From: Candidatus Heimdallarchaeota archaeon
GTDB lineage: Archaea; Asgardarchaeota; Heimdallarchaeia; Heimdallarchaeales; Heimdallarchaeaceae
Direction of reading: 5' to 3'
Length of the DNA stretch: 64,000 nucleotides
NCBI GenBank assembly: GCA_030603365.1
Contig: JAUVXV010000010.1
Coordinates: forward strand, 1 to 64,000
In this document: positions 28,371-48,504 of the stretch, one piece after another
Position numbering within the stretch: the stretch's first letter is position 1
Layout of the letters: every line of letters begins with the position of its first letter
Made by a program: the position numbers and the translations under genes
Notes under the pieces: model-generated
Told to the model about the DNA's origin: nothing
What the model saw: the letters and a program-made list of their open reading frames with translations, nothing else
The model's database searches: none

Positions 28371-29289
28371 AATCTATACTGATGTAGCAATAGTGGGAGG
28401 AGGTCCTGCGTGTTGTACAGCTGCAATACAGCTGGTTAGAAATGGTATAGAAATCAAATTAATTTCTGATGATATAGGAGGAAAAATCAGGAATGCTAAT
28501 TTAATTGAAAATCTACTTGGATTTCCTAAAGGAATCAGTGGAGAAGACTATGTGAGAATTCTCAAAAATCAGTATACTGAATTCAAGATTCCTATGATCA
28601 AAGGTATTGCTGAAGAGATTAAGACATTCAGAGAGAGATTCATAATAAGAACTGCTAAGAAAAAAATTGTTTGTAATCACACAATTGTTGGAACAGGGTC
28701 TATACCAATAAGAATGGGAATAGCGAATGAAGAAGAAGCATTCAAAAAGAAAAACCTCTATTATGAAAACTACAATGCTCGTAAGAATGTTAAAGGGAAA
28801 AGTGTGCTCATTATTGGAAGTGGAGATATTGCTTATGACTATGCAATGAATCTTAAAGAAACAGCTAATCACATTTCTATTGTACAAAGAACAAAAAGGA
28901 CTAAGAGTATACCTATTTTACAGGAAAGAGTTTCAAGACAAACGAACATCAGTGTACTCACAAACATTGTTCCAGAAAAAATCAAATTTGAACATAAAAA
29001 AATAATCTTAACAGGAAGAAGAGATGACAAAATCATTCCTTTAATGGCAGATACAATTTTAGTAGCAATTGGCAGAGAACCTAATATAGGCATGTTGTCA
29101 CCAGAATTATTAGCAGCATATGAAAAAGAAGAAGATATACCAAATATCTACTACATTGGAGATGTAAAAAAGGGAAACTACAGACAAGTATCTATAGCTA
29201 TGGGAGATGGGATGAACGCAGCGATGGAAATAGTAAAAAAGACAACTGCAGAGGAAGGTAACTACGGAATCAGAAGAGAGATATGGTAA
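28360..29289 (+). CDS. FAD/NAD(P)-dependent oxidoreductase, thioredoxin-reductase-like but lacking the redox CxxC
   Basis: VGGGPA, IEN..GFP.GISG, IIGSGD.A and GDV...RQ..IA.GDG motifs; overlaps the upstream gene; C-terminus YGIRREIW. Confidence 0.85.
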   Translation: MTDEIYTDVAIVGGGPACCTAAIQLVRNGIEIKLISDDIGGKIRNANLIENLLGFPKGISGEDYVRILKNQYTEFKIPMIKGIAEEIKTFRERFIIRTAKKKIVCNHTIVGTGSIPIRMGIANEEEAFKKKNLYYENYNARKNVKGKSVLIIGSGDIAYDYAMNLKETANHISIVQRTKRTKSIPILQERVSRQTNISVLTNIVPEKIKFEHKKIILTGRRDDKIIPLMADTILVAIGREPNIGMLSPELLAAYEKEEDIPNIYYIGDVKKGNYRQVSIAMGDGMNAAMEIVKKTTAEEGNYGIRREIW

Positions 29290-29390
29290 CTAAGAGTTAA
29301 CTAAATCATTCAGTTTTAAGTCTTGTACTTAATTTTTTTGTAAATAACCTCTTTTGATATGAAGATAAAAAAAAGGAAGAGGAGATAACA

Positions 29391-29683
29391 TATGGAATTA
29401 CTAGGGAAGTATGAGTTAGTTTCTCCTTCAGAACCCAAAGATTCTCAATTAGATCCTTTCGGGACTCCTCCTAAACTGGCGTGGCTTCGGGTTGGCATTG
29501 TATCATTTTTGATAGATGAAAAAAGGTTTTCATACAATCATTACCAGCCTCTGGAACAGTAAACTGTTCAAAGGATTCATCTCCTAATAAAGGGCACTCA
29601 TTATCGAATCAGTCAAATCAAAGAGACGACAGATTCTCGACCTCGCACATCGAATTTAGCAAAACGATGTATTCTATACAGAA
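29391..29683 (-). ncRNA. Putative TnpB omegaRNA: structured scaffold (~29683-29414) plus guide (~29413-29391)
   Basis: Lies directly 3' of tnpB. Hairpins at 29647-29670, 29554-29569, 29516-29533 and 29501-29514, the last two enclosed by ATTGTA/TACAAT. Contains a GAAGCCACGCC..TTTAGG motif reminiscent of TnpB right ends, followed by a T8 tract (29367-29374, minus strand). Confidence 0.65.
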
Positions 29684-31210
29684 TCACTTAAGCCATTGAC
29701 CTAAGGGCAGAAAGCATATGTAATGTCGTAGCGGATGGTAGTCTTCAGTTAGTGTGTCTTTTATGTAGTTAAACTTTGGTTTCAATACATATCGAATCAA
29801 CCTCTTCCCAATATTCTTCGCTCCGTTCAGATCTGCGTCTAGTTCGTAGTTGCATTGGTTGCACTTGAACTGTCCTTGTCCTGTACGGGTAGTGTTCATC
29901 GAATTACACCTAGAACATCTTCTAGAGGTCCAACTCTCATTAACAGCTACCACTCGGTAGGATTCAAATCCATGCTTAGCTAGTTGATGTTTCAACCTAG
30001 TGATAAAGTTGCGATAGCACCATTTATGCACTTTTTTTCGCAAAGATTTGTTTCCACTACCTCGACGGTGACGATTCTGTAGATCTTTAGGATAGCCAAC
30101 AGATATAAACAGATTATAGTGTTTCTTCAACTGAAGGATGAAACCAACCAATTGGTTAACTGCATACCCCAATTCTTGTTCAGTAATAGAACGTCGTCGT
30201 CTTCGTAGACGGAAGAGTGTACTATTTAGCTGTTTAGTGTGTTGTCCATTGTTGAGACTATTGTTCAACTTCCTCTGAGTATCTTTGATCTGTCTACTAA
30301 GTTGCCATATTTTCGACTGCCTCTCCTTATCAACGATAAAACGTATTTCATCCATGATTACTCGACCAGTAGAGTTAAGCAATACTGCAACAGCTGTTTT
30401 CTTGATTCCCAAGTCTATTCCTAACACTGCAGGTGTAAGAGTAGATTGATAGCTGGGAACAGAATACTGGAGGGTAAAATTTGCCCACCACTTTCGCTCT
30501 CTGGATTTATAAACTAGTTCTAATATTTTGATATTATCTAGTTCCAGCTTCTTCTCGTGATAAGGTGAAAAAGCTAATGGTAGTCGAAGTTTTTGATGGT
30601 TTCTTTTACCAGATCGTCTAGTATCAAGAGAATCCCTTAATTCTATCCAAAGATGAGCTTCAGCATTTTTAGGTTTATGATATACCTGAAATGTACCTCT
30701 GCTTCCTGTTCCTTTGAAAAAAGTTCGGGGGGTTTTGTTCTTGAAACATGGTTTACCCAGTTCTTTCTTAGAATTGTCTTTTAGTGCTTTCCAGCTTTCG
30801 TAAGTCCAGATAGCTTTGTTTCTGCATTCTTGAAATTCATCTACTGAGCAACGAGGATAACGTTTCTTCAAGTCGTGAGGAACGGATGTTCGTAACTTGT
30901 ATTGCGTATTCTTTGAAGTAGTTAAAGTTAATTCATCCAAGAGGGAAGTATCAACTTTACCGTTCTTTCGCAGAATTCTATCCTCATTGTGGAAGATGAT
31001 GCGCAGGTAGTGTCGAATGATTCTGGTATCTCTTGCGGTTATTCGCTTCAACCTTTCACACTCTCGAACAGACATCAGTTCCGTCTTGATTCTAAGAGAA
31101 ACAGTCTCATAGAATGTAACTAATGGTGCTTGAGGAGTGTTTTTGACTTTTCCATGTGTCTTGTTTGCAGTTTGTAGTTTTTCCTGTTTATTTGTTTCTT
31201 CATTTTTCAT
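29684..31210 (-). CDS. tnpB: TnpB-family RNA-guided endonuclease (508 aa) with rearranged, Fanzor-like RuvC-II
   Basis: RuvC-I GIDLG; Gly at the canonical RuvC-II site (ISVGYP); alternative Glu in VNESWTSRRC; Zn finger CSRC..CNQC; RuvC-III DADLNGAKNI. Confidence 0.9.
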   Translation of the reverse strand: MKNEETNKQEKLQTANKTHGKVKNTPQAPLVTFYETVSLRIKTELMSVRECERLKRITARDTRIIRHYLRIIFHNEDRILRKNGKVDTSLLDELTLTTSKNTQYKLRTSVPHDLKKRYPRCSVDEFQECRNKAIWTYESWKALKDNSKKELGKPCFKNKTPRTFFKGTGSRGTFQVYHKPKNAEAHLWIELRDSLDTRRSGKRNHQKLRLPLAFSPYHEKKLELDNIKILELVYKSRERKWWANFTLQYSVPSYQSTLTPAVLGIDLGIKKTAVAVLLNSTGRVIMDEIRFIVDKERQSKIWQLSRQIKDTQRKLNNSLNNGQHTKQLNSTLFRLRRRRRSITEQELGYAVNQLVGFILQLKKHYNLFISVGYPKDLQNRHRRGSGNKSLRKKVHKWCYRNFITRLKHQLAKHGFESYRVVAVNESWTSRRCSRCNSMNTTRTGQGQFKCNQCNYELDADLNGAKNIGKRLIRYVLKPKFNYIKDTLTEDYHPLRHYICFLPLGQWLK

Positions 31211-31272
31211 GGGTTCAACTCCTTAAAAAAGTTAGAAATTTCTAAACGATGAACCTCGTTCAAATTGTCGAA

Positions 31273-31498
31273 ATCATTGGTTCGTCTTCCAGTCTCTTGC
31301 AAAACTAATAGAGGAACCAATGATAGTACTACGTGTATAATTGCATCAGGAACTCGAATAAGATTACAGAAGAACTACTAAACCTCTTTTCTTCACTCCT
31401 TTTTCCTTTTAGTGATAAGTGAGATATTAGCTGTCCACGGGGGGTGGAGCTGCAGTATTTCTCACTCATCTACGTACAAACCAAAGTTGACTATAAAA
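31273..31498 (-). promoter_or_regulatory. TATA-like box and long structured 5' leader (or left-end hairpins) of tnpB
   Basis: TTTTATA (31498-31492, minus). Hairpin AGTGAGA..TCCAC/GTGGA..TCTCACT at 31418-31466. 11-bp inverted repeat at 31273-31283/31314-31324. Confidence 0.45.
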
Positions 31499-31569
31499 AC
31501 ACCAAAGAAATTAAATTAAGATATTCTAGTTCAAATTAGGAGAAAGATTTAACAAGAATATAAAGAACT

Positions 31570-33264
31570 TTGATTGGTTTAACAATGCGAAAGAAGATAA
31601 GGGGGGTTCTGATAATTGTTCTTTTCTGCATAACAATAAATTTTCAGGAAAACAGTCATACAATTGCAAATAACAATGAAATCAATCATAGAGATTTAAC
31701 ATTGGAGTATTCTGTTCATGATCCTATAAGAATAACCAATGATCAGAATTTTACGGATTATGGCTTTTCAGGAAATGGAACAGAAGAAAGTCCATTCATT
31801 ATCGAGAATTTTAATATAACAACAACTAGTAGAATAGGAATTTATATTTACAATACAACAAAGCATTTTGTTGTTCGAAACTGTTATGTTGATGCAGAGG
31901 AGCACGGGATAGCCATCTTTTCAGTAGATGATGGTACAGCAACTGCTACAAATAATATTTGCATTAATAATTATTACTACGGCATCGCTATAAATTCTGC
32001 TCGAGGTTCTACAATTTTCAACAACACTTGTAACTATAATGATAATGGTATTTACACCGGTGATAGTGCGTATTCGAACATTCTTAATAATACTTGTAAC
32101 TATAATGATGTGGGGATACTGTGGCCTTCTTTTTATTCAATTGTAGCTAATAATACATGTAATAATAATGATGTTGGTATTTCGTTGTCTCAATCTACAG
32201 GTTCAATTGTCACTCACAATGAATGTTCAAATAATTATGATGACGGTATCAGTGGTTCTGCCTTTTTCAATCTCACGATTAACTACAACACTTGTAACAA
32301 CAATGGTTTTGATGGTATAGGTCTAGGTGGTCTTAGTAGTCATTATTCTGTAATCAACAATACTTGCAATAATAATGGCATGTATGGTATCTGGATTAAT
32401 AATGAAGGTAGTCATAAGGTTATTAACAATACTTGCAGTAATAATGCGTATGAGGGTATAATTCTCTCTGCTTGGGATCCTTCAGGTGGTTCTTTTATTG
32501 CAAACAACACCTTAACTAATTGTGGATTAACAATAAGTGAGAATTACGTTGATGCCTATCTCTCACATACAGTAGAGAATAACTGGGTAAATGGCAAAAA
32601 ACTAGGATTTTTCACTAACCTTGACTCTGAAATAATAAGTGATTCAATATATGGACAATTAATTTTAGTTAATTGTACTTTGACAACCATAAGTCATCAA
32701 ATACTTAATGCAGCTACAAAAGGGTTATTTCTCTACTCCTGTTCTTCTGTTACACTTCTAAACAATACGTGCGCTTACAACAGTCTATATAGTATTAAAA
32801 GTGAATTATGTACTAGTTTAATTATTATCAACAATACATGTAACAATAACCTTCATGGTATTTACCTTGAAGATACTGATTCTTGTCTCATAACTTACAA
32901 CTTTCTTAAAGAGAATGAGAATTATGGTGTAAATTTGAGAACTCGAACAATAGCCAAATCTGAAAATAATCTTGTTCATCATAATATTTTCTTAGACAAT
33001 AATTTGTTGGGAACATCTCAAGCTAGTGATAGTGGAACCAACAATTTGTGGTATGATTCTGTTACACAAGAAGGCAATGAATGGTCGGACTGGTCTGGAG
33101 CTGGATCTTACTCGATTGATGGTTCTGCTAATTCCGTTGATTTATATCCTCTTGGAGGACCTGTTGTAGCTGAATTTACTCAGAGCATTTTACTAGTTTT
33201 CCTATTATCTATATTCTCATTATTCCTTGTAAGAGTATTATCAAAGAAAATAAGAAAGAAATGA
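31570..33264 (+). CDS. NosD/beta-helix surface protein with C-terminal VAEF + TM + basic tail
   Basis: Repeated NNTCNNN..GI units; shares VNGKKLGFF and YGQL with the 22060 paralog. Confidence 0.85.
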   Translation: MIGLTMRKKIRGVLIIVLFCITINFQENSHTIANNNEINHRDLTLEYSVHDPIRITNDQNFTDYGFSGNGTEESPFIIENFNITTTSRIGIYIYNTTKHFVVRNCYVDAEEHGIAIFSVDDGTATATNNICINNYYYGIAINSARGSTIFNNTCNYNDNGIYTGDSAYSNILNNTCNYNDVGILWPSFYSIVANNTCNNNDVGISLSQSTGSIVTHNECSNNYDDGISGSAFFNLTINYNTCNNNGFDGIGLGGLSSHYSVINNTCNNNGMYGIWINNEGSHKVINNTCSNNAYEGIILSAWDPSGGSFIANNTLTNCGLTISENYVDAYLSHTVENNWVNGKKLGFFTNLDSEIISDSIYGQLILVNCTLTTISHQILNAATKGLFLYSCSSVTLLNNTCAYNSLYSIKSELCTSLIIINNTCNNNLHGIYLEDTDSCLITYNFLKENENYGVNLRTRTIAKSENNLVHHNIFLDNNLLGTSQASDSGTNNLWYDSVTQEGNEWSDWSGAGSYSIDGSANSVDLYPLGGPVVAEFTQSILLVFLLSIFSLFLVRVLSKKIRKK

Positions 33265-33381
33265 TTTAGAATTATTGTTTCAACTTAGACCGTTTCTTCT
33301 TTTCCATAAAATCCCCATAGAATGAGTTAGACTATATGTTTATATTGCGTTTGAAAATGAAATGGAAATGAGGTACATCAT

Positions 33382-33924
33382 ATGAACTTTATCTCTCAAG
33401 TCGAAGAAATTCTACAACAAATGGAACACATGGGGTCTTCTACACAGATACGCGTTCCACATGGAATAATGTCCTATGCAAGTACATATCAAAACCAGCT
33501 TACTTTTCTCAATAATAATACTCTCAAAAAGAATCTATCTTATCTTTTAATGCTAAATGATTTTCTTACTTGGGCAGTAAGAAGATTTTCACTTGTACCA
33601 GGTATAAAAGATATGTTATTCAAGAATATAATAGCAAATTATGGGTTTGCTGTTGAAGCAATTAACAAAAATCTAGCAAAGAAAATAACAAACAACAAGG
33701 ACATTGGTTTTGATTCCTCTTCTTCTGTTCTGAATGAAAATAACATAATTACGAAATCGATGAAAAAGGAAATTAGATGGTTATACGATATTAGAAATAA
33801 ACAACATTATGATACGCTTCCCAAAGTTGAATTTGAACATTATACATATAGGGATTGTAAGAAAGCACAAAGGATTTTTAGTCAATATATTCGTCAAATA
33901 GGCCAAAAATATGAGGGTGAATAA
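33382..33924 (+). CDS. Hypothetical helical protein, possible HEPN/Abi-like
   Basis: L.DIRNKQH (RNxxH) near the C-terminus and an E-containing helix upstream. Confidence 0.5.
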   Translation: MNFISQVEEILQQMEHMGSSTQIRVPHGIMSYASTYQNQLTFLNNNTLKKNLSYLLMLNDFLTWAVRRFSLVPGIKDMLFKNIIANYGFAVEAINKNLAKKITNNKDIGFDSSSSVLNENNIITKSMKKEIRWLYDIRNKQHYDTLPKVEFEHYTYRDCKKAQRIFSQYIRQIGQKYEGE

Positions 33925-34029
33925 TCAACAATATAGACAAAGAAGATTTTCTCGCTGAATACAGGAAAGATAAGAAAAAGGGTGATAGAAGGGTTTTTAA
34001 TCCTTCAGTCATGGCATAATTCCTGGGTC

Positions 34030-34833
34030 TTATGTTGTATAAGATTCTATGAATAAAGTTTCAAATTCTGAAAAATCCATAGTATCAATATCTAGAAACA
34101 CTTCTAAAATGCCATTATCTAGAAGTAGAACCATATCTGCAATAAGTAATTCACTATCTTCAACATATTGAGAATTCAAGTAGATATATTCCCCAATTTT
34201 GAAATTACTCTCAGGAGAAAGTTCTATTAACTTCTTACTAATGATTCCATTTGAATGAACTAAGATATTTCTAATCTCGTAGAAAATATCAATTTTCTGA
34301 AGTATTGGCGGATCTACTTCTAAATTTATATTAATTTTTTCTTTCACTCGATTGAATATTCTTGAGTAATCACCATACAGCATATCTCGAATATATTTAG
34401 AAGTTACTTCCGTGAGAATATCCTGTTTATCATTCTCGTCAGACGTCATAGAATTCTCCAAACGCTCTTTCAAAATCTCAGGTTTCTTTTCCAACCATAT
34501 TTTGAAGATGTTGTATAGATAGCTTTCAAGGATTGTATTTAAATGAACTATCATATTCTTAATTCTGAGACCATTGTATCCTGTGGACAACCATAGTTCT
34601 AAAGCTCCTGACCTGGTTTGTAATTTAGCATCAGAAGTGTACCTCTTTCCGAAAGGATTTGGCTCTGAACTACCGAATTTGGAGAGAATTACATCTATCA
34701 ACTCATCTTGAGAGTATTCAACAGACATGATGTTCAAAGTCATGATGTCAAACAAGGTTTGAGAAGCGTATGTGCTTATTTTCCTATCTCTGTTTTTCTC
34801 AATAAAATCCCTATTTTTGTACTGGTTAAACAT
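34030..34833 (-). CDS. HEPN-domain protein (putative RNase)
   Basis: ILESYL helix plus EIRNILVHSNG (Rx4H). Confidence 0.7.
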   Translation of the reverse strand: MFNQYKNRDFIEKNRDRKISTYASQTLFDIMTLNIMSVEYSQDELIDVILSKFGSSEPNPFGKRYTSDAKLQTRSGALELWLSTGYNGLRIKNMIVHLNTILESYLYNIFKIWLEKKPEILKERLENSMTSDENDKQDILTEVTSKYIRDMLYGDYSRIFNRVKEKININLEVDPPILQKIDIFYEIRNILVHSNGIISKKLIELSPESNFKIGEYIYLNSQYVEDSELLIADMVLLLDNGILEVFLDIDTMDFSEFETLFIESYTT

Positions 34834-34921
34834 AAAATCACATATTGAATTGTGTTTAGTATCTAAATTGTATGTGAGTATAATAATTTTTCATCGAAAT
34901 AAAGATGAAAACTAACTTGAC

Positions 34922-35146
34922 TCAAAGGAAATCTTCCAAATCTGATTGCTTCTTGGGACGCATGAAATCCTTCAGTTCCTTTTCTTTAAGTTCAATAAAC
35001 CATTGTTTGATGAGTTTAGAATCAGGATGAACAACAGACTTAGGAACCCAGATAGGACGGTCAGAGAGAGTATCCACAAAAGCAAGAAAAGCTTTCTCAG
35101 TCTCAAGATCAATCTTACCAAGCTTATAAGTAGAATAATCACTCAT
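34922..35146 (-). CDS. Small hypothetical protein (PIWxPKSVV family, copy 1)
   Basis: ETEKAFL..PIWVPKSVV..IKQWFI; paralog at 35564. Confidence 0.7.
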   Translation of the reverse strand: MSDYSTYKLGKIDLETEKAFLAFVDTLSDRPIWVPKSVVHPDSKLIKQWFIELKEKELKDFMRPKKQSDLEDFL

Positions 35147-35563
35147 CTTGAGAATTCTAAGAGAAATTAATATAAAAATGATTAAGAGAGATTTGAGTGT
35201 TTGTTCTTCTCATGAAAGCAATTGGAGTAATAGTGCAAGCAAATCAAAGCCTAGTTGTTCAAGAACAACATATACAACTGAGAAACTAAATACACTTATT
35301 GGTATTATAATTTTAATATTTATTTTCATTTTGAGTCTATTTTCACAAACAGCCTTTTAAGCCTTTCTAATCTCATTTTTTGTTATTTCACTTATTTTCC
35401 AAAATATAGAAAATATAGATGATTTTATATTCTATATAGAGACAAATATATCGCGAAATTTCAATTGTATATAGTATATTTCTTTGTATATTTTAAAAGG
35501 AGATATCAAAAGAGTAATTTCCATTAATCTCTCGTTTTATAGAGTTTGTTGGATAAATCTTTT

Positions 35564-35782
35564 TTACTTTCTTTTCCAATTTCTCTTGCCTTCCTTAATC
35601 TGTCTGATAAACCAGTGTTTAATTCTCCAATGTTTATCAACAACAGATTTAGGAAACCAGATGGGTTCATCAGTAAGGTCGTAAATAGTAGCATAGAAAG
35701 AGTTGGCAGATTCACCAAGAAGGTAATCAATAGAATAATCAGAAAAAGAAGAATCTTTAGGAGGAGAATCTTCTAAAACCAT
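35564..35782 (-). CDS. Small hypothetical protein (PIWxPKSVV family, copy 2)
   Basis: Within ORF 35564..35878; likely start ATG 35782 (MVLEDSPP); PIWFPKSVV..IKHWFI. Confidence 0.65.
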   Translation of the reverse strand: MVLEDSPPKDSSFSDYSIDYLLGESANSFYATIYDLTDEPIWFPKSVVDKHWRIKHWFIRQIKEGKRNWKRK

Positions 35783-35841
35783 AAACGCTTTCAGGCAAAG
35801 AAAAGGAAGAAAGTATAAAAAGACCAAGAAAAACCAAGTAT

Positions 35842-36693
35842 TTGGTAAACATGGAAATTGATACGACAGAAGAACCATTTCTCAAATATAGAGTAAAGAA
35901 ATCCACAAGAATAGATTATGCTGATACATTGGAAATTATATTAGAGAGTGATTTTACTGAAGAAGAGAAGTTTTTCTTTGTGAGATTCAACGATGTTGAT
36001 AGAAAGGTTAAGAAATTTCACAACAATGTTTGGGGATTAAAAGCTACTAGACTTTGGATAAAGGGTAAAGAAGTATATCTTGAGGAGTCAGGTAGACATG
36101 GAATCACTGAGACAATATTTTGTTCATATAAAGAGGATTGTGAAGGGATATGTAAACATAATATGGGATTAGCTAGAACTTGGGAAGTTTCTAGAGATGA
36201 TCCATTCTATGACGAGAAAATAGCTGAAACAGATAGTATACAAGGTATATTAAAAAGGATAGAAAAAGTAAAGGAGGATATAAAACCTGATGAAAGTGAG
36301 GACTATATACTTCGTGAAATGGAAAATTTGTCTATAGTTGAATTGAGATTGGAAGAAAAGAAATATATGATGAACAAAACCGTTTTCAGAAAATATCTTG
36401 AGAAGAAACTGGGATTTGAGTTCGAATATTGTCCAATAATCTCAAAAGATGATACACTTCGAATTATAGAAGGCTTTCCAGAAGAATTCTTGCTATCAGA
36501 GGAAATGATAAGATATCTTACTAGAGATAGATTTGAAACAGGGATGACTGTTTCCAGTTTAGAAAGAACAGAAGGGGAAGAGATAGAGAAAGAGGAATGG
36601 GAGTATGAAAAGAAGCAGGCGGAATTGATAGGAGATGAAGTAGAGAAAAGATTCAGGAAAGTCCTATCAGAGTTTTTCAATAGGAGAGAATAA
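35842..36693 (+). CDS. Hypothetical protein, possible SWIM-like Zn site
   Basis: CSYKEDCEGICKH motif; acidic and charged. The start is probably ATG 35851. Confidence 0.6.
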   Translation: MVNMEIDTTEEPFLKYRVKKSTRIDYADTLEIILESDFTEEEKFFFVRFNDVDRKVKKFHNNVWGLKATRLWIKGKEVYLEESGRHGITETIFCSYKEDCEGICKHNMGLARTWEVSRDDPFYDEKIAETDSIQGILKRIEKVKEDIKPDESEDYILREMENLSIVELRLEEKKYMMNKTVFRKYLEKKLGFEFEYCPIISKDDTLRIIEGFPEEFLLSEEMIRYLTRDRFETGMTVSSLERTEGEEIEKEEWEYEKKQAELIGDEVEKRFRKVLSEFFNRRE

Positions 36694-36914
36694 AAATCAC
36701 GCTTTATTGTTTAATGTGTGATTATTTCTTCTTCTATCATTTTCTCCCGATTAACTGCCCCACAATTCTTGCAAATCTGTTCTCATCTGGTTTCATCAAG
36801 AACCAAGTTTCGTTCTCCACAAACCGAACAATCAAATTCATCCATATTGATAGAATAGAGTTTAGCTTCCAGTTCTTCCTGTTCTGTAAGAGATTTAACG
36901 CATCTGGATATGCT

Positions 36915-38105
36915 CTACTCACTCTTATCGGTTCTAGTAATTTCTATATTGAATACATAATCCCCATAATAAACATCGAGTAACTCACAACCTTTGAGTT
37001 CCAATGTATGTATGTCGTTTATTATACGAGAAGGGTATTCCCAGAATTCCATAACAATGAGAAAAACGCTTTTGCAACGCTTACATTCGTGTGTTCCATT
37101 GAATGTATGCTGTTCTTCAATTCCTAGTGATTGCTCTTCACCAGAATCGGTTTGTTCCCAATTGAGATGAAATTCTTGTGTTTTTCCACAATTACAACAT
37201 TCTACAGTTGTTACAGGTTTAATCTTATAGATATCATCTTCAAACTCTCGATTATAGAAAAATCTCTTGTCAATACTTCTAAAAAAATCCATTAAATTAA
37301 CAAAAAAAGTTTCATCTTCTAACCATATATCTAATTCGTTCTTTGAGGATATCTTTTCAAGAAGTTTTTCTTGTTTTTCTTTCCATTCATCAACAAAATC
37401 TTCGAAGTTATTGTATGAAGCTTTTTTGAGAAACTTCATAATTGATTGATTAGGTTGTATGTTTATTGCAGTATACCAATTTTGAATAAATTTTGTGATT
37501 AAATTCTCTAGAATGTTTAAATTCTGGTCTTTTATTGATTTTTTATCTGGTTTCAAATGCAAATAATGTTTGTCAATTATTTCTTTAAACTCATACCAAA
37601 CATCTCCATTTCTCTCAATTTTATTAGTTAGAACTATTTGTAGATTATTTTTTTCTGTTATAACTAATTCCATGTTCTCGTGAATGTATGTCCAATATAT
37701 TGTTGGTGAGGATATAGGATCTTTTCCTACTTCTGAAGAATAATCGACAAAAAAGAAGAAAAATGGTTTACGAGATGCGCTCCATGTTTCAATATAGGTT
37801 TCTTCTATTGGAAAAAGAATTTTACCATCTGATTTTTTATATTCCTCTGTCGTAGATGATTTTATTTGACCAGAAAAATCATATTTAGTAGAATTCGCTA
37901 CTGAATCGAAATATATGTAGTTTCTATATTTGTTTACGCCTTTCTCCTCTGGCATGTGACCGATAATGTCAGTTCCTGTATCAATAAATGGATACTTCTC
38001 TATAAATATACAATGAGGAGAAATTAACTGACATGACAAATGTTTGTATGAAACTTCCTCTTGTATTTTTGTATATAGCATAATTTTACTCAGTGATTTT
38101 CCCAT
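36915..38105 (-). CDS. DUF4365-like PD-(D/E)xK nuclease fused to a C-terminal Zn ribbon
   Basis: DTGTDIIG...QIKSS (D-G-D...QxK); CNC..CKRC and WEYP motifs. Confidence 0.65.
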   Translation of the reverse strand: MGKSLSKIMLYTKIQEEVSYKHLSCQLISPHCIFIEKYPFIDTGTDIIGHMPEEKGVNKYRNYIYFDSVANSTKYDFSGQIKSSTTEEYKKSDGKILFPIEETYIETWSASRKPFFFFFVDYSSEVGKDPISSPTIYWTYIHENMELVITEKNNLQIVLTNKIERNGDVWYEFKEIIDKHYLHLKPDKKSIKDQNLNILENLITKFIQNWYTAINIQPNQSIMKFLKKASYNNFEDFVDEWKEKQEKLLEKISSKNELDIWLEDETFFVNLMDFFRSIDKRFFYNREFEDDIYKIKPVTTVECCNCGKTQEFHLNWEQTDSGEEQSLGIEEQHTFNGTHECKRCKSVFLIVMEFWEYPSRIINDIHTLELKGCELLDVYYGDYVFNIEITRTDKSE

Positions 38106-38192
38106 TTTGAATCACTTGTATTAACTAAATAAATAGTTAAAAACTCCACAGATTTTTGTGTTCTCCGTTCTCTCCCTAAGAAGAATTACTAC

Positions 38193-40601
38193 TCACGTTA
38201 TTTCCATTTTCAGTAACTGATTAGCTAATTCCCGTTGCGCACAGAGGACGACTTTTTCTTCATTATGAAGTGTTCTTTCCTTCAGTACTTCTTTCAATAA
38301 ATCTTCTAGAGAAGATGATTTTTCCCCAAGTATTGCTTGTTCTATCTCATGTCTGGAGTATCTCTTAATCAGTAGAGAACAAGCATTTCTTGCATTTTTT
38401 CTTATTATTGAGCATTCTTTCTCGTTTTTACTCAACGAACAATAGGTTATACAGACATCATCAGGTTTGAACTTGTGATTAAGAAACGAACTGTTTTGTT
38501 CCTTTGGTTTTTGCCTTTCAGCATTTGTTTTTTTCTCTTTTTGGTAGTTCTTTTTTGAAGTCTGGTTCGACTGAGTAAGTTTGTCGTGAAGAGTTGTTCT
38601 CATTTCTATAAAACTACTAAACAAGAGAGGATAGAGTGAAGAAGAGTATTTTCTTTTAAGAAACAATAGATAGGTCTGATAATCCAAGGGTTTGCAGTTG
38701 AATTCCTTTGTAATTATCTCCAAAGCCTTATTTTCTCCATCTTTCCAGATAAAACAATGACGAATAGGTAGTTGTTGGAGTCGTTCATAATGAAACTCAT
38801 GTAAGTTGAGAGCTTTAGCTAGTTTCTCTGTTTCTTGACCTGAACGAAAAACAATCTTTGTAGAAGAATTAGCATGAACAATATTACTTACATTATGCCA
38901 CATTTGGGTACAGAAGATATGACCAATACCTAAGCTTCTACCTAGCAGAATGTTATTTTCAGCTGTGATCAAAGAAGCCGAACTCTGTGTTCGATAAATT
39001 TTTGGGATAATATTAATCGCTTCTTCTAAAACTAGAACGTAACGAAGCTTATTGGTGAGATCTTTTGCGGCAGCAAACCTATAGAAGAGTTTCAGAATCA
39101 AGTTACAGACAAGATAAATGTCTGAAGGTCTTGCTGCTCTTCGCTGGAATTGGCTGAGATCTAGGATAATAGTCTTCCCTTGATCCATTACATCAAAATT
39201 CAACGTTGTTTGAGACACTCCTAAGATTTCAAAATTACTAGGGTTAAAAATGAAATTCAGTCTATTTAACACAGCATCTAGCGTGTTCTGGATAGTAGTA
39301 ACTCGTTTATTTTTCTTAGCCAAAGTAATAAGGTGCTCTGCAAAAACCTCTAATGTCCTCTTTTCTTCTTTGTGAGTGAGAAAAAGAGCTGTTTCAAAAA
39401 GGTTCTTCATAGATGGACTAAAATTCTGATCAGTAGAAGCAATCATTTCTTCAATAACTAGAAGTGTTCCTCTAACGTCATCCTCATCTTCGGTGTCAAA
39501 GAGATTAACGCAAAGAGGATGTGGACTACCGATAGTAAAGATTTCCACATTGGGTTCTGTAGCAAAAGTCATTGCATATTCTCCTTTAATATCAAAAACC
39601 AAACTTGGCACATTACTATGGATAAGGCTTTGGAGAATACCGCTGACAAATCTTGTCTTCCCTCTCCCTATCATTCCATAGATTTCAACGTTGTAGAGCA
39701 GTTCACCTATACTGATAGAGATTTCATCATCAAGTAATTCATTTATGTATTCGTATCCAAGAAGGATAGATTCTCCTTGCTTGAACACTGTTCTTGGTTT
39801 AGATAGAACAGCTGTAGTTATCTCTTTATAATCTAAAGGAATGTGGAAATACTTTGGTACATCATCAAGTAAAACTATTTCATACTCTTGAACTGAAGAT
39901 GTATTCTGCTTCTTTGACATATTTGTTGCGTTCAAGAATTTCCTGATTGAGAAGTTATCATCAGATAAAGCTGAGAATCTAACGTAAAATTCACCATTAA
40001 TATGTTTCAAGTTTTGAACACTAATCATTAAACTAACATCAGGACAACGTTCAAGAGCTATAGTCTTGTACATCATGTCCATTACATCTATCTCTGTATC
40101 GACCAAAGCAGAGTAATCTAGAGGTATTCTCTTTTTCTTCTTTCTTAGAAAACGAAGAAGAAGTTTAGATTGTTTAGAATTAAGGATATTGAAGTGGCCT
40201 TCATAGTTTGTAGAAAGAGCGTTGGTAACAAGTAGTAATTCTTTTTCTAATTTTTGTAAAATCCTCTTCTTGGAGAAGCCTTGTTTAGAAAGAAGGATGT
40301 AAAGACTCGTTCTCGACTGATATTTGGAGATTACTATCTGGATTTTTTCAACATTCAAAGCAACTAAAGTACTAAAACTGGTATGAATTCCTTCTACTTC
40401 TTCTGAATTGAGTTTAATATTGCAATTAATATGTTTGATAAGTAAAACTACCTTACATCTGTAAAATGGTAGAAGGATTTTTCTCTGTAAAAAAAACTCA
40501 TTGTTTCTGGTTCTGATATAAGGAAACGAAAGAACAAGCAAAAGAATGACAAAAATAGAACTGAACAAGAAAGTTAACAATACTATATCCATAGCTATCA
40601 C
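38193..40601 (-). CDS. HerA/FtsK/VirB4-like P-loop ATPase with N-terminal TM helix
   Basis: Walker A GMIGRGKT, FDIKGEY, Walker B VLEEA and GRSLG...TQ motifs. Confidence 0.85.
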   Translation of the reverse strand: MIAMDIVLLTFLFSSIFVILLLVLSFPYIRTRNNEFFLQRKILLPFYRCKVVLLIKHINCNIKLNSEEVEGIHTSFSTLVALNVEKIQIVISKYQSRTSLYILLSKQGFSKKRILQKLEKELLLVTNALSTNYEGHFNILNSKQSKLLLRFLRKKKKRIPLDYSALVDTEIDVMDMMYKTIALERCPDVSLMISVQNLKHINGEFYVRFSALSDDNFSIRKFLNATNMSKKQNTSSVQEYEIVLLDDVPKYFHIPLDYKEITTAVLSKPRTVFKQGESILLGYEYINELLDDEISISIGELLYNVEIYGMIGRGKTRFVSGILQSLIHSNVPSLVFDIKGEYAMTFATEPNVEIFTIGSPHPLCVNLFDTEDEDDVRGTLLVIEEMIASTDQNFSPSMKNLFETALFLTHKEEKRTLEVFAEHLITLAKKNKRVTTIQNTLDAVLNRLNFIFNPSNFEILGVSQTTLNFDVMDQGKTIILDLSQFQRRAARPSDIYLVCNLILKLFYRFAAAKDLTNKLRYVLVLEEAINIIPKIYRTQSSASLITAENNILLGRSLGIGHIFCTQMWHNVSNIVHANSSTKIVFRSGQETEKLAKALNLHEFHYERLQQLPIRHCFIWKDGENKALEIITKEFNCKPLDYQTYLLFLKRKYSSSLYPLLFSSFIEMRTTLHDKLTQSNQTSKKNYQKEKKTNAERQKPKEQNSSFLNHKFKPDDVCITYCSLSKNEKECSIIRKNARNACSLLIKRYSRHEIEQAILGEKSSSLEDLLKEVLKERTLHNEEKVVLCAQRELANQLLKMEIT

Positions 40602-40695
40602 TCGTGCTTTATATAAAGTTTAAACTCACAGAATAAACAAAAAAACCATATAAAAACACATCAAAGTATTAGCAAAAACCTCAGAAATAGACAAA

Positions 40696-41697
40696 TCATT
40701 TTCCATATCTAAATTGTGTAATTTCCTCAATAATGGCCAAATACTTAATACATGATTGACTAATTTCCATAAACAGAAATGCTAAGTGTATATCTTTTAA
40801 AACAGTATTCAAGATATTCGTAAATGCTTTCTTCATCTCCGAACTTGGCTCTGTCCTTTTTTTCTTATCTTTATTATCAGAGAAATCAAATTTCACAATA
40901 GAATCGATTATGTAATCTTTTTTCTCCTTTGCTTTTTTGTATTGTTTTCGAAATTTACTTCTTAGTTTTTCCAATTTTGGCAAAGGATTCGCATGTGCTA
41001 TAGAGTTTCGTGTTTCTAAAAATAGGTCAAAGGCAGCTTTATCATTTATGCCTTTATAATCAAAGTAAAAACCATCTATTTGTTCAGGTAACTTATCACC
41101 CATCACTTTAAGTAGGAATTTTGTTTTGTCTTTTATTCCACCTTTTTTGGGATATCCATCTAGCTTCTCTCTTTCTTCAAGAGGAATCTTCTTCTTGAGA
41201 AGTTTCTCAAAGTATTCATCAAGATAAACATCAATATAGGCATATAAAGCAAGAATATAATATGCAGAACAACGTTGAACAATTTTCAACTCTTGCATTC
41301 CTTTTTTGGATAATACATCTTCATTCTTCTTATCTTCTGCTGAACCAAATACAGGGAAAATATGTGGTCTCAGAGTCAAGATTGCTTCAGTAATCTCATG
41401 ATTTTCTTTTTCAGTATCATTTTTAAGAAACATCTCAGTCCCCTCATCTATCAGCTTGTTGTAATAGGGCTCAAGTTTTGGTCTCTTGTTTACTATTGAT
41501 ACAAGTAGTATGATTGCTTCTGTAAAAATCGTAAGATCAGCACATTTGCTTTCAAGTTTCTTTCCAAATTTAGATTCTAGTACTTTATCCAAAAGCGTGA
41601 AACCAAAGTATTTTGATTTGTTAGTTAACTCCTCTGTTTCAATAAGCGCTAATTTCTGACTGATAATACAATGAACATCGTCTTGTGATAAGTCCAT
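40696..41697 (-). CDS. HEPN-domain protein (putative RNase)
   Basis: LYAYIDVYL helix plus ETRNSIAH (Rx4H). Confidence 0.6.
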   Translation of the reverse strand: MDLSQDDVHCIISQKLALIETEELTNKSKYFGFTLLDKVLESKFGKKLESKCADLTIFTEAIILLVSIVNKRPKLEPYYNKLIDEGTEMFLKNDTEKENHEITEAILTLRPHIFPVFGSAEDKKNEDVLSKKGMQELKIVQRCSAYYILALYAYIDVYLDEYFEKLLKKKIPLEEREKLDGYPKKGGIKDKTKFLLKVMGDKLPEQIDGFYFDYKGINDKAAFDLFLETRNSIAHANPLPKLEKLRSKFRKQYKKAKEKKDYIIDSIVKFDFSDNKDKKKRTEPSSEMKKAFTNILNTVLKDIHLAFLFMEISQSCIKYLAIIEEITQFRYGK

Positions 41698-41797
41698 ATG
41701 ATAGAAGGCACTTAAAGAGATATAATTGTGTCTATATCAAGGTAAATTAGCACTTATTTGGAGTTCATACTTGAATATGAAAACTGAATTTGCTAGT

Positions 41798-42499
41798 TCA
41801 TTTATTGATAAACATTATTTCCTCATTTGAATACCGTTTCTCTAGCCTATTTCTATATTCCCTAAACAAGTCTCTTGTTTCTAATTGGCAGATTACGATA
41901 ATAATTCGTCCATAAAGCTCAATATTTCTGTCCACTTGACCACTTAACCTATCAAAATCTTCTCGTTTAGGATTCTTCTTAAGTTCAATTGGGATAGAGT
42001 CATTAACTAAGATGTCTACTTGTGTTGGTCCTGCTTCATCTTTAACATTGAATCCATACTTAAGTTCTAATAATGATCTTAGTTCTGTTTGATATCCTTC
42101 TTCTGTTTTATACCTACGAGCAGGTATCCACTTTTGAATTATTATCTCTAAAGGTATTGTTTCTTCTTCGATTACTTCTTGCTCTTTCTCAACGAGTTTC
42201 TCCTCTGTTTTTTCTAATTCTTTTAGAGTTTGCTTTATATTTAGTTTTAAATCATCTACTATTCTATTCCAGAGTGTGTCTTTTGAACCAGAAATAGGTA
42301 AATCAAGCTCCCAACACAAATCAGACAGATGATGCTTGTAAAAATATGCTGTTAAATCATCAAGCTCGAAGTCCTTACAGGAAAGGATACGAAGGATAAT
42401 ATCCTCTTTCTTACCAGATTTATCTAAACCTAAATTTTTTGCTAAATCTTGTACTTCTTCTTTGTAGAGATGTTTCTTCATAAAATCAAAGACATTCAT
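41798..42499 (-). CDS. Tandem SAP-like DNA-binding repeats fused to a PD-(D/E)xK nuclease
   Basis: Two K..L..L...LxL..SG.K..L..RI repeats; E..YQ.EL...VDILV...IPIELK...GQ. Confidence 0.72.
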   Translation of the reverse strand: MNVFDFMKKHLYKEEVQDLAKNLGLDKSGKKEDIILRILSCKDFELDDLTAYFYKHHLSDLCWELDLPISGSKDTLWNRIVDDLKLNIKQTLKELEKTEEKLVEKEQEVIEEETIPLEIIIQKWIPARRYKTEEGYQTELRSLLELKYGFNVKDEAGPTQVDILVNDSIPIELKKNPKREDFDRLSGQVDRNIELYGRIIIVICQLETRDLFREYRNRLEKRYSNEEIMFINK

Positions 42500-42616
42500 A
42501 GTAAACCAAGAATATCTTAAGAAAGCAAAGTATTAGTATTTTTCGACAGAATTTAGAGGGGATATTGACTGAGTTTTATCAACATGCTTTAAGAACTCAA
42601 ATGTAGTATTATCGGA

Positions 42617-44206
42617 TTGAAGAGTCTGTTTCTCATGTCTGAAAAAAAGCCTAAATCTAAATCTATTTCAGATTTTCCTGAACTAGTTAAGGAATGGCAT
42701 CCTACAAAAAACGGGGATTTGAAACCTGAGAGCGTTTCTTTTGGTTCTAAAGAAGACATATGGTGGAAATGTCTAGAAGGACCAGATCATGAGTGGTTAA
42801 CTAAACCCAATTATAGAACTGGCGGAAAAAAAATAACAGGATGTCCTTTTTGTGCAGGAAAAAAAGTTTCTGTGACTAACTCTTTGGCTATTAATTTTCC
42901 AGAAATAGCTAAAGAGTGGCATCCAACAAAAAACTTAGGGAAAACCCCAGATGAAGTTCTAATGAAATCAAGTAAAGAAATTTGGTGGCAATGTAGAGTT
43001 AACTCTAAGCATAATTGGGTAGCAAAAGTAAATGACAGAACTGGAGTGAATAAATCAGGATGTCCTTATTGTTCTGGAAGATTGGTTTTGGAAGAAGATT
43101 CTTTAGCTGAATTATATCCAGAAATTATCAAAGAATGGCATCCAACAAAAAATACAAATCTAAATCCAAATGAATTATCCCCAGGTTCAAAGAAAAAGGC
43201 TTATTGGATATGCGATAAAGGACCAGATCATATTTGGAAGGCAGTGATAGACAGCAGAATAAGAGGGAATAGGAAATGCCCCTATTGTGCAAATAAAAAG
43301 GTGTCAGTGACGAATTCATTAGCCACTAAATTTCCAGAAATAGCCAAGGAATGGCATCCTACTATGAATAGAGATCTAACACCAAATAAAGTTGTACCAG
43401 GATCTGATAAATTAATCTGGTGGCAATGTTCTCAAAACTCTGAACATATTTGGGACACCAAAATTCATGAAAGAACTGGATCTAAAAAAACAGGATGTCC
43501 GATATGCTCACATAGAAGATTATCTCCTTATAACTCTCTGAGAACACTCTATCCAGAAATAGCTAAAGAGTGGCATCCAACAAAAAATTCTGGACTAACT
43601 TCAGAGATGGTGATAGGAGGTTCTCACAGAGAGGTATGGTGGAAATGCTCAAAAAATTCTGATCATACATGGATAGCTAAGATAAATAATCGGGTTCATA
43701 ACAAAAGTGGATGTCCATTTTGTAACTTATCTGGTGGTTTGGAAATAATAGGATATTTATGGGAAAGAATATGTCACAGAATTGCCAGATACTTATTGGA
43801 AGGGAAGAAATGGAAATGGCAACCGAAAATTGATACTCCAGAAATAGATGAAAGAAATTGGATATTTCCTGAGATACTTATAGAAAATCTTGATGGAACT
43901 TTAGAAATTATAGAAATAAAAAAATCGCCCTCGGCAATAACAAACAAAGACACATCCATTTATCCACTATATGCGGCTGAAGTAAAATTTTGGTGTCTAT
44001 CTGTTGAATTTTCTGATAATTCGGACTTAGCTGAGAGTTTTGAATTTATCTCAAGCAACGAGTTAGTTCAGCAATTAAAAAACAAGATTAATGAGGAAAA
44101 TAAGAAGGGGATTTATAGGATAATTAAAGATATTGAAAGACTTAAAGATGGAAAATTTTCATCTCAACAAAAACTTCTTACAGATTTTATTTCTATAGAT
44201 GATTAA
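42617..44206 (+). CDS. Zinc-ribbon (DUF4379-like) five-repeat protein with a probable C-terminal PD-(D/E)xK-like domain
   Basis: Five EWHPTxN...WW.C....H.W......R....GCP.C units; C-terminal FPEI...IIEIKKS. The start is likely ATG 42635. Confidence 0.8.
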   Translation: MKSLFLMSEKKPKSKSISDFPELVKEWHPTKNGDLKPESVSFGSKEDIWWKCLEGPDHEWLTKPNYRTGGKKITGCPFCAGKKVSVTNSLAINFPEIAKEWHPTKNLGKTPDEVLMKSSKEIWWQCRVNSKHNWVAKVNDRTGVNKSGCPYCSGRLVLEEDSLAELYPEIIKEWHPTKNTNLNPNELSPGSKKKAYWICDKGPDHIWKAVIDSRIRGNRKCPYCANKKVSVTNSLATKFPEIAKEWHPTMNRDLTPNKVVPGSDKLIWWQCSQNSEHIWDTKIHERTGSKKTGCPICSHRRLSPYNSLRTLYPEIAKEWHPTKNSGLTSEMVIGGSHREVWWKCSKNSDHTWIAKINNRVHNKSGCPFCNLSGGLEIIGYLWERICHRIARYLLEGKKWKWQPKIDTPEIDERNWIFPEILIENLDGTLEIIEIKKSPSAITNKDTSIYPLYAAEVKFWCLSVEFSDNSDLAESFEFISSNELVQQLKNKINEENKKGIYRIIKDIERLKDGKFSSQQKLLTDFISIDD

Positions 44207-44332
44207 TATTTGGAAGTTTACTCATTTAGTAGTCAGAAAAAGCTAAAAAAGAACTAAAAATGAAGGAGTTCGAATTAAATTCTAGATTTAAGCAGTCTCT
44301 GATAAACACAAATAATACTAACTTTCATAACA

Positions 44333-44340
44333 TTTTTAAG
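44333..44340 (+). promoter_or_regulatory. TATA-like box supplied by the island end for the radical SAM gene
   Basis: TTTTTAAG lies ~26 nt upstream of ATG 44367, the spacing expected for a leaderless archaeal transcript. Confidence 0.45.
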
Positions 44341-44366
44341 AAGACAATGATTTCTTGAAATGACTG

Positions 44367-45311
44367 ATGATGAAGATCTTGGGGAAGTATGGTAAAGACG
44401 ATTTAGCTATACTTTATATCGCGAAACATGATGGCAAAATAGTAGAATTTGTCGAAAGTTTACAACCCCCTATTCCCCGAGAGAAAAAGTGGGTTCTGAT
44501 AATATCTACAATGTATGGATGCCCAGTAGGATGTCTAATGTGTGATGCAGGAGAATACTATCATGGGAATGTCTCCGCAGATGGGATGCTAAAGGAAATT
44601 GATTTTATGATTAAAAACCGCTTTCCTGATGGTAAAATTCCTATAAACAAATTCAAAATCCAATTTGCCCGTATGGGAGAACCAACCCTTAATGAACATG
44701 TTCTAGAGGTTATTAAAACCCTACCTGAGAGATATGAAGCAGCAGGTTTGATGCCTTGTATTAGTACAGTAGCTCCTAATGGTTGTGAAAAGTTTCTAGA
44801 TGAACTAATAAAGATTAAAGATGAGCTCTTTTCAGATGGTAATTTTCAGATACAGTTCTCCATCCATTCAACTGATGATAATGAAAGACACAAGTGGATG
44901 ACTAAGAATATTTGGTCTTTAAAGAAAATTGCGGAATTCGGAAACAGGTGGTTTAAAGAGGGAGATAGGAAAGTGACGCTCAATTTTGCAGTAGCAGAGG
45001 ATTCCAAAATAGATCCAAAAGTAGTTAAAGAACTTTTTAACCCAAAAAAATACTGGATCAAATTAACTCCTATTAACCCAACCAATAAAGCTGTTAATAA
45101 TAAGATTCAAAGTGGAATTACTGAAGACAACACTGAATACTTTCCACTAGTACAAGAATTTCGTAATCTGGGATTTGATGCAGCTATTAGTATTGGTGAA
45201 TGGGAGGAAAATGATATTGGAACTAATTGTGGTCAATTTGCAACACAATACAAAGATGGCAAGGTTGGAATCAAGGATAGCTATACTACCACAAATTACA
45301 CTATGGATTAG
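44367..45311 (+). CDS. Radical SAM enzyme, RlmN/Cfr-like
   Basis: CPVGCLMC (CxxxCxxC), RMGEP, QFSIHS and C-terminal CGQ motifs. Confidence 0.85.
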   Translation: MMKILGKYGKDDLAILYIAKHDGKIVEFVESLQPPIPREKKWVLIISTMYGCPVGCLMCDAGEYYHGNVSADGMLKEIDFMIKNRFPDGKIPINKFKIQFARMGEPTLNEHVLEVIKTLPERYEAAGLMPCISTVAPNGCEKFLDELIKIKDELFSDGNFQIQFSIHSTDDNERHKWMTKNIWSLKKIAEFGNRWFKEGDRKVTLNFAVAEDSKIDPKVVKELFNPKKYWIKLTPINPTNKAVNNKIQSGITEDNTEYFPLVQEFRNLGFDAAISIGEWEENDIGTNCGQFATQYKDGKVGIKDSYTTTNYTMD

Positions 45312-47459: not shown

Positions 47460-47530
47460 GAATTAAAAAAAGAGAGTTCTGAGATATTAGTAAAAGGTTT
47501 TACTTTTTTTTCTTGGAAAAGTTAAAAAAA

Positions 47531-47737
47531 TCAATGTGGATGCAACTTCATATTTCCTTCTTTATCGATAATTGCACCAGCATGTCTTAACGCCCAACAA
47601 GAAATAACCACTCCCACAGGCAAACTTGCGGGATGTCGAGCTGCGAATTCCATATGAACATCTAACACTGAAGGTCCTTCACCTAAACTAATGGCACCAA
47701 TTTCTAACTTATTCAAGATTTCAATAAGATTTTTCAA
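47531..47737 (-). pseudogene. Displaced duplicate 3' end of the fumarate hydratase alpha-subunit gene
   Basis: About 62 aa nearly identical to the C-terminus of 48505..49392 (ILNKLEIGA..GEGPSVLDVHMEFAARHPASLPVGVVISCWALRH..LHPH), with many synonymous nucleotide differences. Confidence 0.88.
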
Positions 47738-48412: not shown

Positions 48413-48504
48413 AGTAGAATAGGAATATTAAGCTTTTGTAGAAAAATAATAAGAGCTTTAGATAATGATTCGGAGTGTGAAATATACTAAAATGAGAAAA
48501 AATG

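Follow-up and report, generated by a model that had tools for sequence, protein, structure and literature searches.

A TnpB-anchored island in a former gene overlap of a Heimdallarchaeota chromosome as a candidate for RNA-guided homing or retention

The first 64,000 nucleotides of contig JAUVXV010000010.1 from a Candidatus Heimdallarchaeota archaeon (assembly GCA_030603365.1; this stretch is referred to below as the window) carry an island of about 15 kb that parts the end of a thioredoxin-reductase-like flavoprotein ('oxidoreductase') gene, ox, from the start of a radical-SAM gene, rSAM. The window is the start of a 144-kb contig in a 3.65-Mb metagenome-assembled genome (MAG) that is 89% complete with 3.4% contamination. 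Here we report that the sequence standing where the omegaRNA of the island's TnpB should have its guide is an unaltered copy of the 26-nt ox/rSAM overlap (the junction) of island-free relatives, and that the guide matches this empty allele and mismatches both resident gene ends. We favour, with moderate confidence, the view that the island homes, or is retained, by RNA-guided cleavage and brings its own rescue copies of the genes it parts. The view draws on the layout of the island, the fact that guide and empty site are identical in two lineages, the mismatches at the resident ends, an intact TnpB, a conserved omegaRNA and a parallel arrangement at a tRNA gene, all of them read from sequence. 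The parts of the island and its flanks are, in window coordinates:

28360-29289, plus strand: ox, intact, 309 amino acids (aa); open reading frame (ORF) with a Pfam Pyr_redox_2 match (7.6e-29) and an NCBIfam TRX_reduct match below cut-off
29263-29289, plus strand: L, the working end of ox, a junction copy with seven guide mismatches (sequence comparison)
29290-29347, no strand assigned: T-rich spacer after ox, homologous to the spacer of a second island in genome G013 (local alignment and blastn)
29348-29390, plus strand: purine-rich decayed remnant of an ox 3' tail, colinear with the guide (comparison with the G013 remnant)
29367-29374, minus strand: run of eight T, a candidate archaeal omegaRNA terminator by position, 37-44 nt after the scaffold end
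29391-29410, minus strand: omegaRNA guide, a pristine 20-nt copy of the ox/rSAM overlap directly 3' of CTCAT, identical to the junction of locus L029
29411-29700, minus strand: omegaRNA scaffold, the right end of the insertion sequence, conserved in 11 copies
29684-31210, minus strand: tnpB, intact, 508 aa; Pfam Cas12f1-like_TNB (2.4e-15) and NCBIfam guided_TnpB (99.3 bits, cut-off 100)
31211-31515, minus strand: 5' region and left end of the insertion sequence, boundary degenerate; homology with seven other copies starts at ...AAATTTC
31516-44366, no strand assigned: cargo, about 12.9 kb, outside the insertion sequence (ORFs and profile searches)
44367-45311, plus strand: rSAM, weakly RlmN/Cfr-like, intact, 314 aa (ORF and profile matches)
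44369-44395, plus strand: R, the working start of rSAM, a junction copy (guide comparison)

An initial annotation of this DNA had pointed to one 23-nt sequence present in three versions, L (29263-29285), G (29391-29413) and R (44369-44391). The three are found at exactly these positions, L and R followed by GTAA and G by AGTTAG, and G can be read directly as YGITREV-stop in one frame and MELLGKY in the other. G is identical to L and to R at 16 of 23 positions each, and L and R agree with one another at 10. Taken by themselves these resemblances prove nothing, because similar matches are common in the window: six further 23-mers match G at 16/23 or better (eight with L and R included), where about 2.5 are expected from simulated first-order Markov (dinucleotide-based) sequences. 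When the adjoining GTAA is added to the comparison (at least 20/27), just L, R and one unrelated site qualify, against an expectation of 0.055.

We regard the relatives as the decisive support for the observation beyond such bare matches. rSAM is present in 18 of 24 genomes of the same genus, and in at least 17 loci or genomes of that genus ox and rSAM are adjacent and overlap, as the initial annotation had supposed, with the ox stop 25 nt after the rSAM start. Orthologues in relatives are 75-80% identical to the window's ox and 69-94% identical to its rSAM. At the closest island-free locus (L029, G012:C160), where the rSAM and ox proteins are 94% and 80% identical to those of the window, the junction equals G at 23/23, is followed by GTAA, and encodes ...NYGITREVW* and MELLGKYGKE; the empty junction thus has the sequence of G rather than of L or R. 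Both host genes, as had also been claimed, are left intact at full length beside the island.

Relative to the guide, L carries mismatches at guide positions 2, 3, 6, 9, 10, 12 and 18, and the former rSAM ATG within it now reads ACG. R matches at positions 1-7, beside the putative target-adjacent motif, and carries mismatches at 8, 10, 11, 13, 14, 16 and 20. The initial annotation had described both flanks as recoded. That L and R differ from G is correct; the L tail (AGAGAGATATGGTAA) and the spacer that follows it are common by descent to the window and to two further genomes, G013 and G016, so that neither arose by independent recoding in the window.

The TnpB matches Cas12f/TnpB structures in the PDB and combines a split RuvC domain with a zinc ribbon. 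The RuvC-I Asp (GIDLG), the RuvC-III Asp (DADLNGA) and the CxxC...CxxC zinc ribbon are retained and conserved in all nine full-length copies of the genus, and in the same nine copies the RuvC-II Glu position is occupied by Gly, within SVGYPK. Large, partly archaea-specific TnpB clades with this Glu-to-Gly change ('RIIr', for rearranged) have been described (Altae-Tran et al., 2023; PMC10691335); structural models in that paper suggest that another Glu takes over from the catalytic residue that was lost, and its authors judge the class active. By analogy, the TnpB of the window would be an active nuclease.

RNAalifold applied to 11 scaffold copies of the omegaRNA gives 63 base pairs, of which 17 show compensatory changes; in this fold the 3'-terminal ACUCAU is joined to AUGAGU further upstream. 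Rfam returned no family match in the window, the scaffold included. All 11 omegaRNA 3' ends align to an invariant ...TAACTCAT, with CTCAT as the terminal bases of the scaffold, and diverge directly after it. This invariant end identifies 29411-29413 as derived from the element, so the guide runs from 29410 down to 29391 on the minus strand. Copy G had therefore been placed rightly at the 3' end of the omegaRNA and its register alone needs correction, the last three bases of the 23-nt sequence belonging to the element. Past the scaffold end, at a distance of 19-78 nt, all 11 copies have a C/T-rich tract ending in T6-T9 (29365-29384 in the window), which at three sites is native target DNA. The tract may act as an omegaRNA terminator and in this way bias which insertions survive. 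We also considered the pyrimidine tract as the true right end of the element, which would make the guide internal, and rejected this: at the junction and at the tRNA site described below the tract is native target DNA, and at C14, where the element is nested in another TnpB family, it comes from the left end of that family. The copy at G013:C80, described further below, is still an oddity in this respect.

The register also bears on the target-adjacent motif, for which TTAC had been proposed. As the element ends in CAT, the neighbours of the protospacer are ...TTTACCAT, and TTAC can be discarded. A second confirmation comes from G013:C80, where the wild type has ...TTTACCAA before the target and the element again ends in CAT. 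The motif is probably (A/C)CAT-like and loosely defined. Directly before the left end of the element, other copies have GTCAT or GGCAC and the window has ATCTTAATTT; in the window, 12.9 kb of cargo separate the left end from R, and no motif lies directly 5' of that end. It is the whole island, rather than the insertion sequence, that sits between motif and guide. Within the 15-kb island of the initial annotation, the insertion sequence measures about 2.1 kb (left-end homology begins near 31515) and 13 kb of cargo lies outside it.

A second island at the same junction is present in an independent Heimdallarchaeota MAG, G013; it and the island of the window are together called the junction islands below. 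Within a 79.9-kb contig (G013:C63) there follow in order an intact ox with an L-type tail, a spacer, a 266-nt ox pseudogene tail, a guide, an omegaRNA and a 536-aa TnpB. The ox remnant corresponds to residues 224-294 (match 1e-18) and contains two stops; G013 retains about 266 nt more of it than the window. The G013 guide is identical at 19/19 positions to the junction of its own clade (L010-L012). The working ox end of G013 mismatches the guide at positions 3, 6, 8 and 9, all of them synonymous in ox, and its rSAM start, on contig C117 with no ox upstream, at positions 10, 11, 13 and 14. The cargo beside that rSAM encodes YaaC-like, transglutaminase-like and HEPN proteins. The expectation that a homologous TnpB elsewhere would keep a guide to this junction while its cargo varied is thus borne out.

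The two junction islands share an origin, as indicated by the homology of their spacers, remnants and TnpB regions. Nucleotide identity between the TnpB regions is 71%; the spacers align with a score of 56, which none of 3000 shuffles (mean 26) reached, and with 75% identity over 149 nt in blastn; and the window remnant matches the G013 remnant at p ~0.0005. Nevertheless the two guides differ at five of 19 positions, and each is identical to the junction of its closest island-free relatives, that of L029 for the window and that of L010-L012 for G013. The G013 remnant has fallen to 65-70% nucleotide identity to any ox gene and the guide adjoining it is unchanged. This suggests purifying selection on the guide, in a sample of two islands of one lineage. 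G013 is 95% identical in both genes at the nucleotide level to the island-free locus G012:C146, and the existence of two island-bearing lineages, each with island-free close relatives, implies either transfer between lineages or long-lived polymorphism. Among the genome contigs searched for the scaffold end joined to the junction, the pattern was found just in G013. A scan of metagenomes for it returned 10 contigs, all chance matches in GC-rich coding DNA with no homology to ox, rSAM or TnpB; in a cold seep metagenome DNA run, 9% of sampled words were present.

A further genome, G016 (L065, G016:C66), has an L-type ox tail identical to that of the window at 26 of 27 positions, followed by a 62-64-nt spacer weakly related to the island spacer, and neither insertion sequence nor cargo. 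Its ox and rSAM do not overlap, the rSAM start has drifted at synonymous sites in the same codons, and the adjacent GTAA is now GTAG, which illustrates how the sequence changes where a guide constraint is lacking. G016 could be a deletion derivative or a precursor of the islands; in the terms of a drive it would be a resistant allele.

The layout recurs at an unrelated target. In G012 (L127, G012:C115:30900-37300) another copy of this TnpB family bounds an insertion of about 6 kb in a tRNA-Asp(GUC) gene, which is not present in G018, G008, G013 or G024. The empty site (L106 1363-1468) is an intron-bearing tRNA-Asp(GUC) gene (Rfam tRNA, 38 bits), and the guide is the displaced 5' part of the tRNA, identical to the wild type at 19 of 20 positions and adjoining ...CCCCCAT. 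The island allele still has a full-length tRNA (31.4 bits), with about 30 extra D-loop bases exactly at the boundary of motif and target, which may be spliced out. The cargo here comprises an AbiV-like HEPN protein, small membrane proteins and a metallophosphoesterase. Read on the TnpB strand, both loci follow one formula: gene, motif, presumably immune target copy, cargo, TnpB, omegaRNA, pristine copy and original flank. An additional rescue, L, is required in the junction island, whose target includes the end of a second gene as well.

The initial annotation had described the island as free of integrase and transposase, and neither an integrase nor a Y1 transposase was found. Y1 TnpA (PF01797) was found in none of the 25 genus genomes searched (72-92% complete), a search that was positive in 6 of 14 reference genomes used as a control and that did not extend to other transposase types, and no cargo ORF of the window, G013 or G012 has a tyrosine or serine recombinase domain. 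Nor are L and R identical attachment repeats, as they share 10/23 positions and GTAA. With no Y1 TnpA and no cargo integrase, classical transposition or integration is unsupported, and recombination after an RNA-guided cut is, on the genes found, the only mechanism whose parts are present.

We propose the following model. The island would be anchored by the TnpB/omegaRNA module and seated in the former 26-nt overlap of ox and rSAM, with the guide (29410-29391) as a preserved orphan copy of the intact overlap. TnpB and its omegaRNA would recognise and cut chromosomes or incoming DNA in which the junction is undisturbed next to ...ACCAT, and repair by homologous recombination with an island-bearing copy would install the whole 15 kb (homing), the same cut removing copies that had lost the island (retention). 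The resident chromosome would be spared by the guide mismatches of L and R, seven in each, of which six in L and three in R fall within the first 12 positions; the G013 ends carry four and four. Both host genes being intact, the cost to the host would be low, and the cargo would ride along. Cleavage, motif, immunity and recombinational spread are thus predictions of the model. More speculatively, and with less confidence than in the reading of this one island, we suggest that it may represent a Heimdallarchaeota family of transposase-less and integrase-less islands that move or hold their place through RNA-guided cleavage of the vacant site, with a TnpB bearing a 'fossil' guide as sole mobility gene, kilobases of defence-like cargo between motif and nuclease, and immune spares of the displaced gene pieces (ends of protein genes, the 5' part of a tRNA), in effect a natural home-and-rescue drive that could ferry cargo. 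On this wider reading the duplicated target copies of 20-26 nt beside the motif might even be footprints of TnpB cuts repaired with captured DNA.

Several observations weigh against homing or retention. A decayed rSAM 5' stub after L and a decayed ox tail before R were both sought and rejected as not significant (p 0.4-1.0 against shuffles), and with longer duplicated flanks negative at L and R, a simple tandem triplication of a long segment is unsupported. In the same window fumA and fumB show gene-tail duplications around inserted genes without any TnpB; the duplication of L and the remnant therefore needs no drive and may come from a general mode of insertion in this genome. The insertion sequence has a degenerate left end and the cargo lies outside it. 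The neighbours of targets and left ends vary (ACCAT, ACCAA, CCCAT or TCAT, GTCAT, GGCAC). The adjacent ...TTTACCAT is still present at both L and R, in R next to a 7-nt match, so that immunity is assumed from the seed rules of other TnpBs. Just two junction islands are known, of one shared origin, and the flanks of G013 compared with G012:C146 form a mosaic (84-100% in 100-nt windows) with no clean co-conversion tract.

The main rival draws on several of these points. It holds that the arrangement is a functionless fossil, in which a TnpB insertion sequence landed beside the junction or in an already orphaned copy of it, ordinary tail and head duplications of a kind common in this genome restored the genes, and cargo gathered in a neutral gap. 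The agreement of guide and empty site is then no surprise, since an element of the IS200/IS605 type is by definition flanked by its target, with the sequence of the empty site; the tail duplications around cargo nearby, made without TnpB, and the degenerate left end also fit, and part of the guide identity would be expected from a junction that is dual-coding and slow-evolving in wild-type lineages. We nonetheless think a fossil unlikely, if well worth keeping in mind. The orphan junction is without coding constraint, yet it has taken no changes in 19-23 nt in two lineages, beside a remnant reduced to the identity given above, with stops and indels. The guides differ at five sites, each equal to the local wild-type junction, despite common descent, TnpB and omegaRNA are intact in both islands, and the layout recurs at a tRNA gene.

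It is also conceivable, though quite improbable, that the island is an integrative element (a virus or plasmid) that lost its integrase, with L and R as decayed attachment sites and TnpB as a later passenger. Integrase-driven islands typically have short direct repeats at their flanks by which gene ends are restored, a HerA/FtsK-like ATPase with SAP and HEPN proteins is cargo such as archaeal mobile elements carry, and at the second locus the target is a tRNA gene, as is classic for integration. Against this stand the lack of any integrase or recombinase domain in the cargo of the window, G013 and G012, an L-R identity of just 10/23, and a cargo that is not conserved between the junction islands; moreover, such an origin does not explain why, in three loci, there is a third and pristine copy exactly where the omegaRNA has its 3' end. 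Chance resemblance or misassembly, suggested by the frequency of 16/23 matches to G in the window and by the draft nature of a MAG, is hardly credible given that the junction of relatives equals G exactly, that the left-hand layout is repeated inside the long contig of an independent MAG, and that GC content is even over the island.

The cargo of the window encodes a NosD-like beta-helix protein, a HerA-like ATPase (802 aa), a SAP-domain protein, a zinc-finger protein with five DUF4379 repeats and several unknowns, together with RiboL-PSP HEPN-like and DUF4365-like proteins whose Pfam matches are both below cut-off; PADLOC gave weak HerA matches alone. Two small cargo ORFs on the minus strand, 34922-35146 and 35564-35878, are paralogous and share the motif PIW(V/F)PKSVV, and they are the sole cargo sequence in common with the G013 island (L064 ~1992-2201; 70% aa identity over 74 residues). 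Four copies of the element (G000:C14:86675-86920; L069, L068 and L063) have, just upstream of their left ends, the 3' portion of a HerA-like gene with the C-terminus ...EIEQAILG...RELxNxL, related to the 802-aa cargo gene of the window (38193-40601), which hints at an older, recurrent association of TnpB and HerA. The direct repeats that flank inserted genes at fumA and fumB, mentioned above, are two pairs, at 47524-47734 and 48498-48708 (82% identical) and at 49391-49525 and 52481-52615 (76% identical).

Two TnpB families are present in multiple copies in the genus, which has many copies of the element studied here, with seven matches to its family in G013. At one of them (L121, G013:C80:7384-10883), near locus position 1500, the scaffold end is followed by a 19-nt guide, a 28-nt T-rich tract and a second 19-nt copy with one mismatch. 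The second copy is the real end of an opposite-strand gene, ...KFWGF* where the wild type has ...KFWGW*, and the arrangement is a tandem target duplication on the guide side; the left boundary of this island lies 117 nt from the wild-type motif, on another contig. A second TnpB family, of 436 and 448 aa with IGYNP at RuvC-II, is found at G000:C15:16400-18352 and 28000-29979 and at G000:C14:84319-84445, and a promoter-like repeat (...GAAAGTAAGATATTACGGGGGCTTTTATAGG) is conserved at the left end of this family. At C14, the copy of the studied element lies nested next to a solo fragment of the second family.

TnpB genes are among the most abundant in prokaryotes, and they are known to serve in maintaining a small insertion sequence at its site. 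For IS200/IS605-family TnpB, as in ISDra2 and Geobacillus IS605, RNA-guided cutting of the vacated or empty site is followed by re-installation of the element through recombination (Karvelis, 2021, PMC8612924; Meers, 2023, preprint PMC10055086; a plasmid gene drive, preprint 10.1101/2025.02.20.638934). The working principle of the proposed island is this 'restorative homing' by TnpB (see also PMC13565253). As in IS200/IS605, downstream of tnpB lies a structured RNA that continues at its 3' end into a variable guide equal to the element-free site, and the expected outcome is that the empty allele is cut and the element copied in by homologous recombination. Unlike in IS200/IS605, the island is without TnpA, none having been found in the 25 genus genomes, and its RuvC-II is of the rearranged Gly type; its guide is an orphan fossil outside both working genes, which are rebuilt by mismatched duplicates, and the stretch from the motif-side gene to the left end is taken up by some 13 kb of unrelated cargo that is no part of the insertion sequence.

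Two other natural systems offer partial parallels. IStrons are IS605/IS607 TnpB elements fused to a group I intron (Zedaveinyte et al., 10.1101/2023.11.20.567912), and in them, as here, a TnpB element spares the interrupted gene, persists without TnpA and aims its guide at the uninterrupted gene; whereas IStrons do so by splicing at the RNA level, the genes of the window are restored at the DNA level by spare gene ends. Free-standing homing endonuclease genes are known from phage 'intronless homing', with marker co-conversion and islands of such genes (PMC13565253). They likewise aim a nuclease at the allele that lacks it, leave the resident immune by sequence differences and drag neighbours along by gene conversion. 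In contrast to them, recognition by the island would lie in a guide RNA and not a protein, and the setting is an archaeal chromosome with kilobases of cargo and a two-gene overlap as target. Full-text literature searches, in the portions of text that they returned, gave no description of a fossil guide detached from working genes, of DNA-level rescue copies, of kilobase cargo outside the insertion sequence or of the absence of TnpA in such a setting.

The island also resembles elements with no TnpB in their definition. Some integrative elements bring with them a new end for the tRNA or protein gene into which they insert; like them, the island supplies the displaced piece, leaves the target gene functional and is flanked by short direct repeats, and unlike them it has no integrase, its repeats are not identical and a third copy would serve as nuclease guide. 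Synthetic 'home-and-rescue' and 'cleave-and-rescue' drives place in one cassette a nuclease with a guide against the wild type and a recoded, immune rescue copy. Nuclease, wild-type-directed guide and putatively immune rescue copy are likewise joined in the one island; in contrast to the synthetic drives it is natural, prokaryotic and TnpB-based, two genes would be rescued at once, and its function is putative.

If the proposed reading is true, an RNA-guided cut would carry and fix whole islands in archaeal chromosomes without transposase or integrase and, since the element itself mends the genes that it splits, with little burden on the host. Triplets of guide, target and immune target such as those found here would give access to the motif and mismatch rules of an uncharacterised clade of TnpBs with rearranged RuvC, and there would be a reason for short insertions and synonymous recoding at particular gene and tRNA sites. 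The islands would be a natural counterpart of engineered rescue-type gene drives, and would reveal a new way for islands to form and to spread horizontally in the archaeal lineage closest to eukaryotes.

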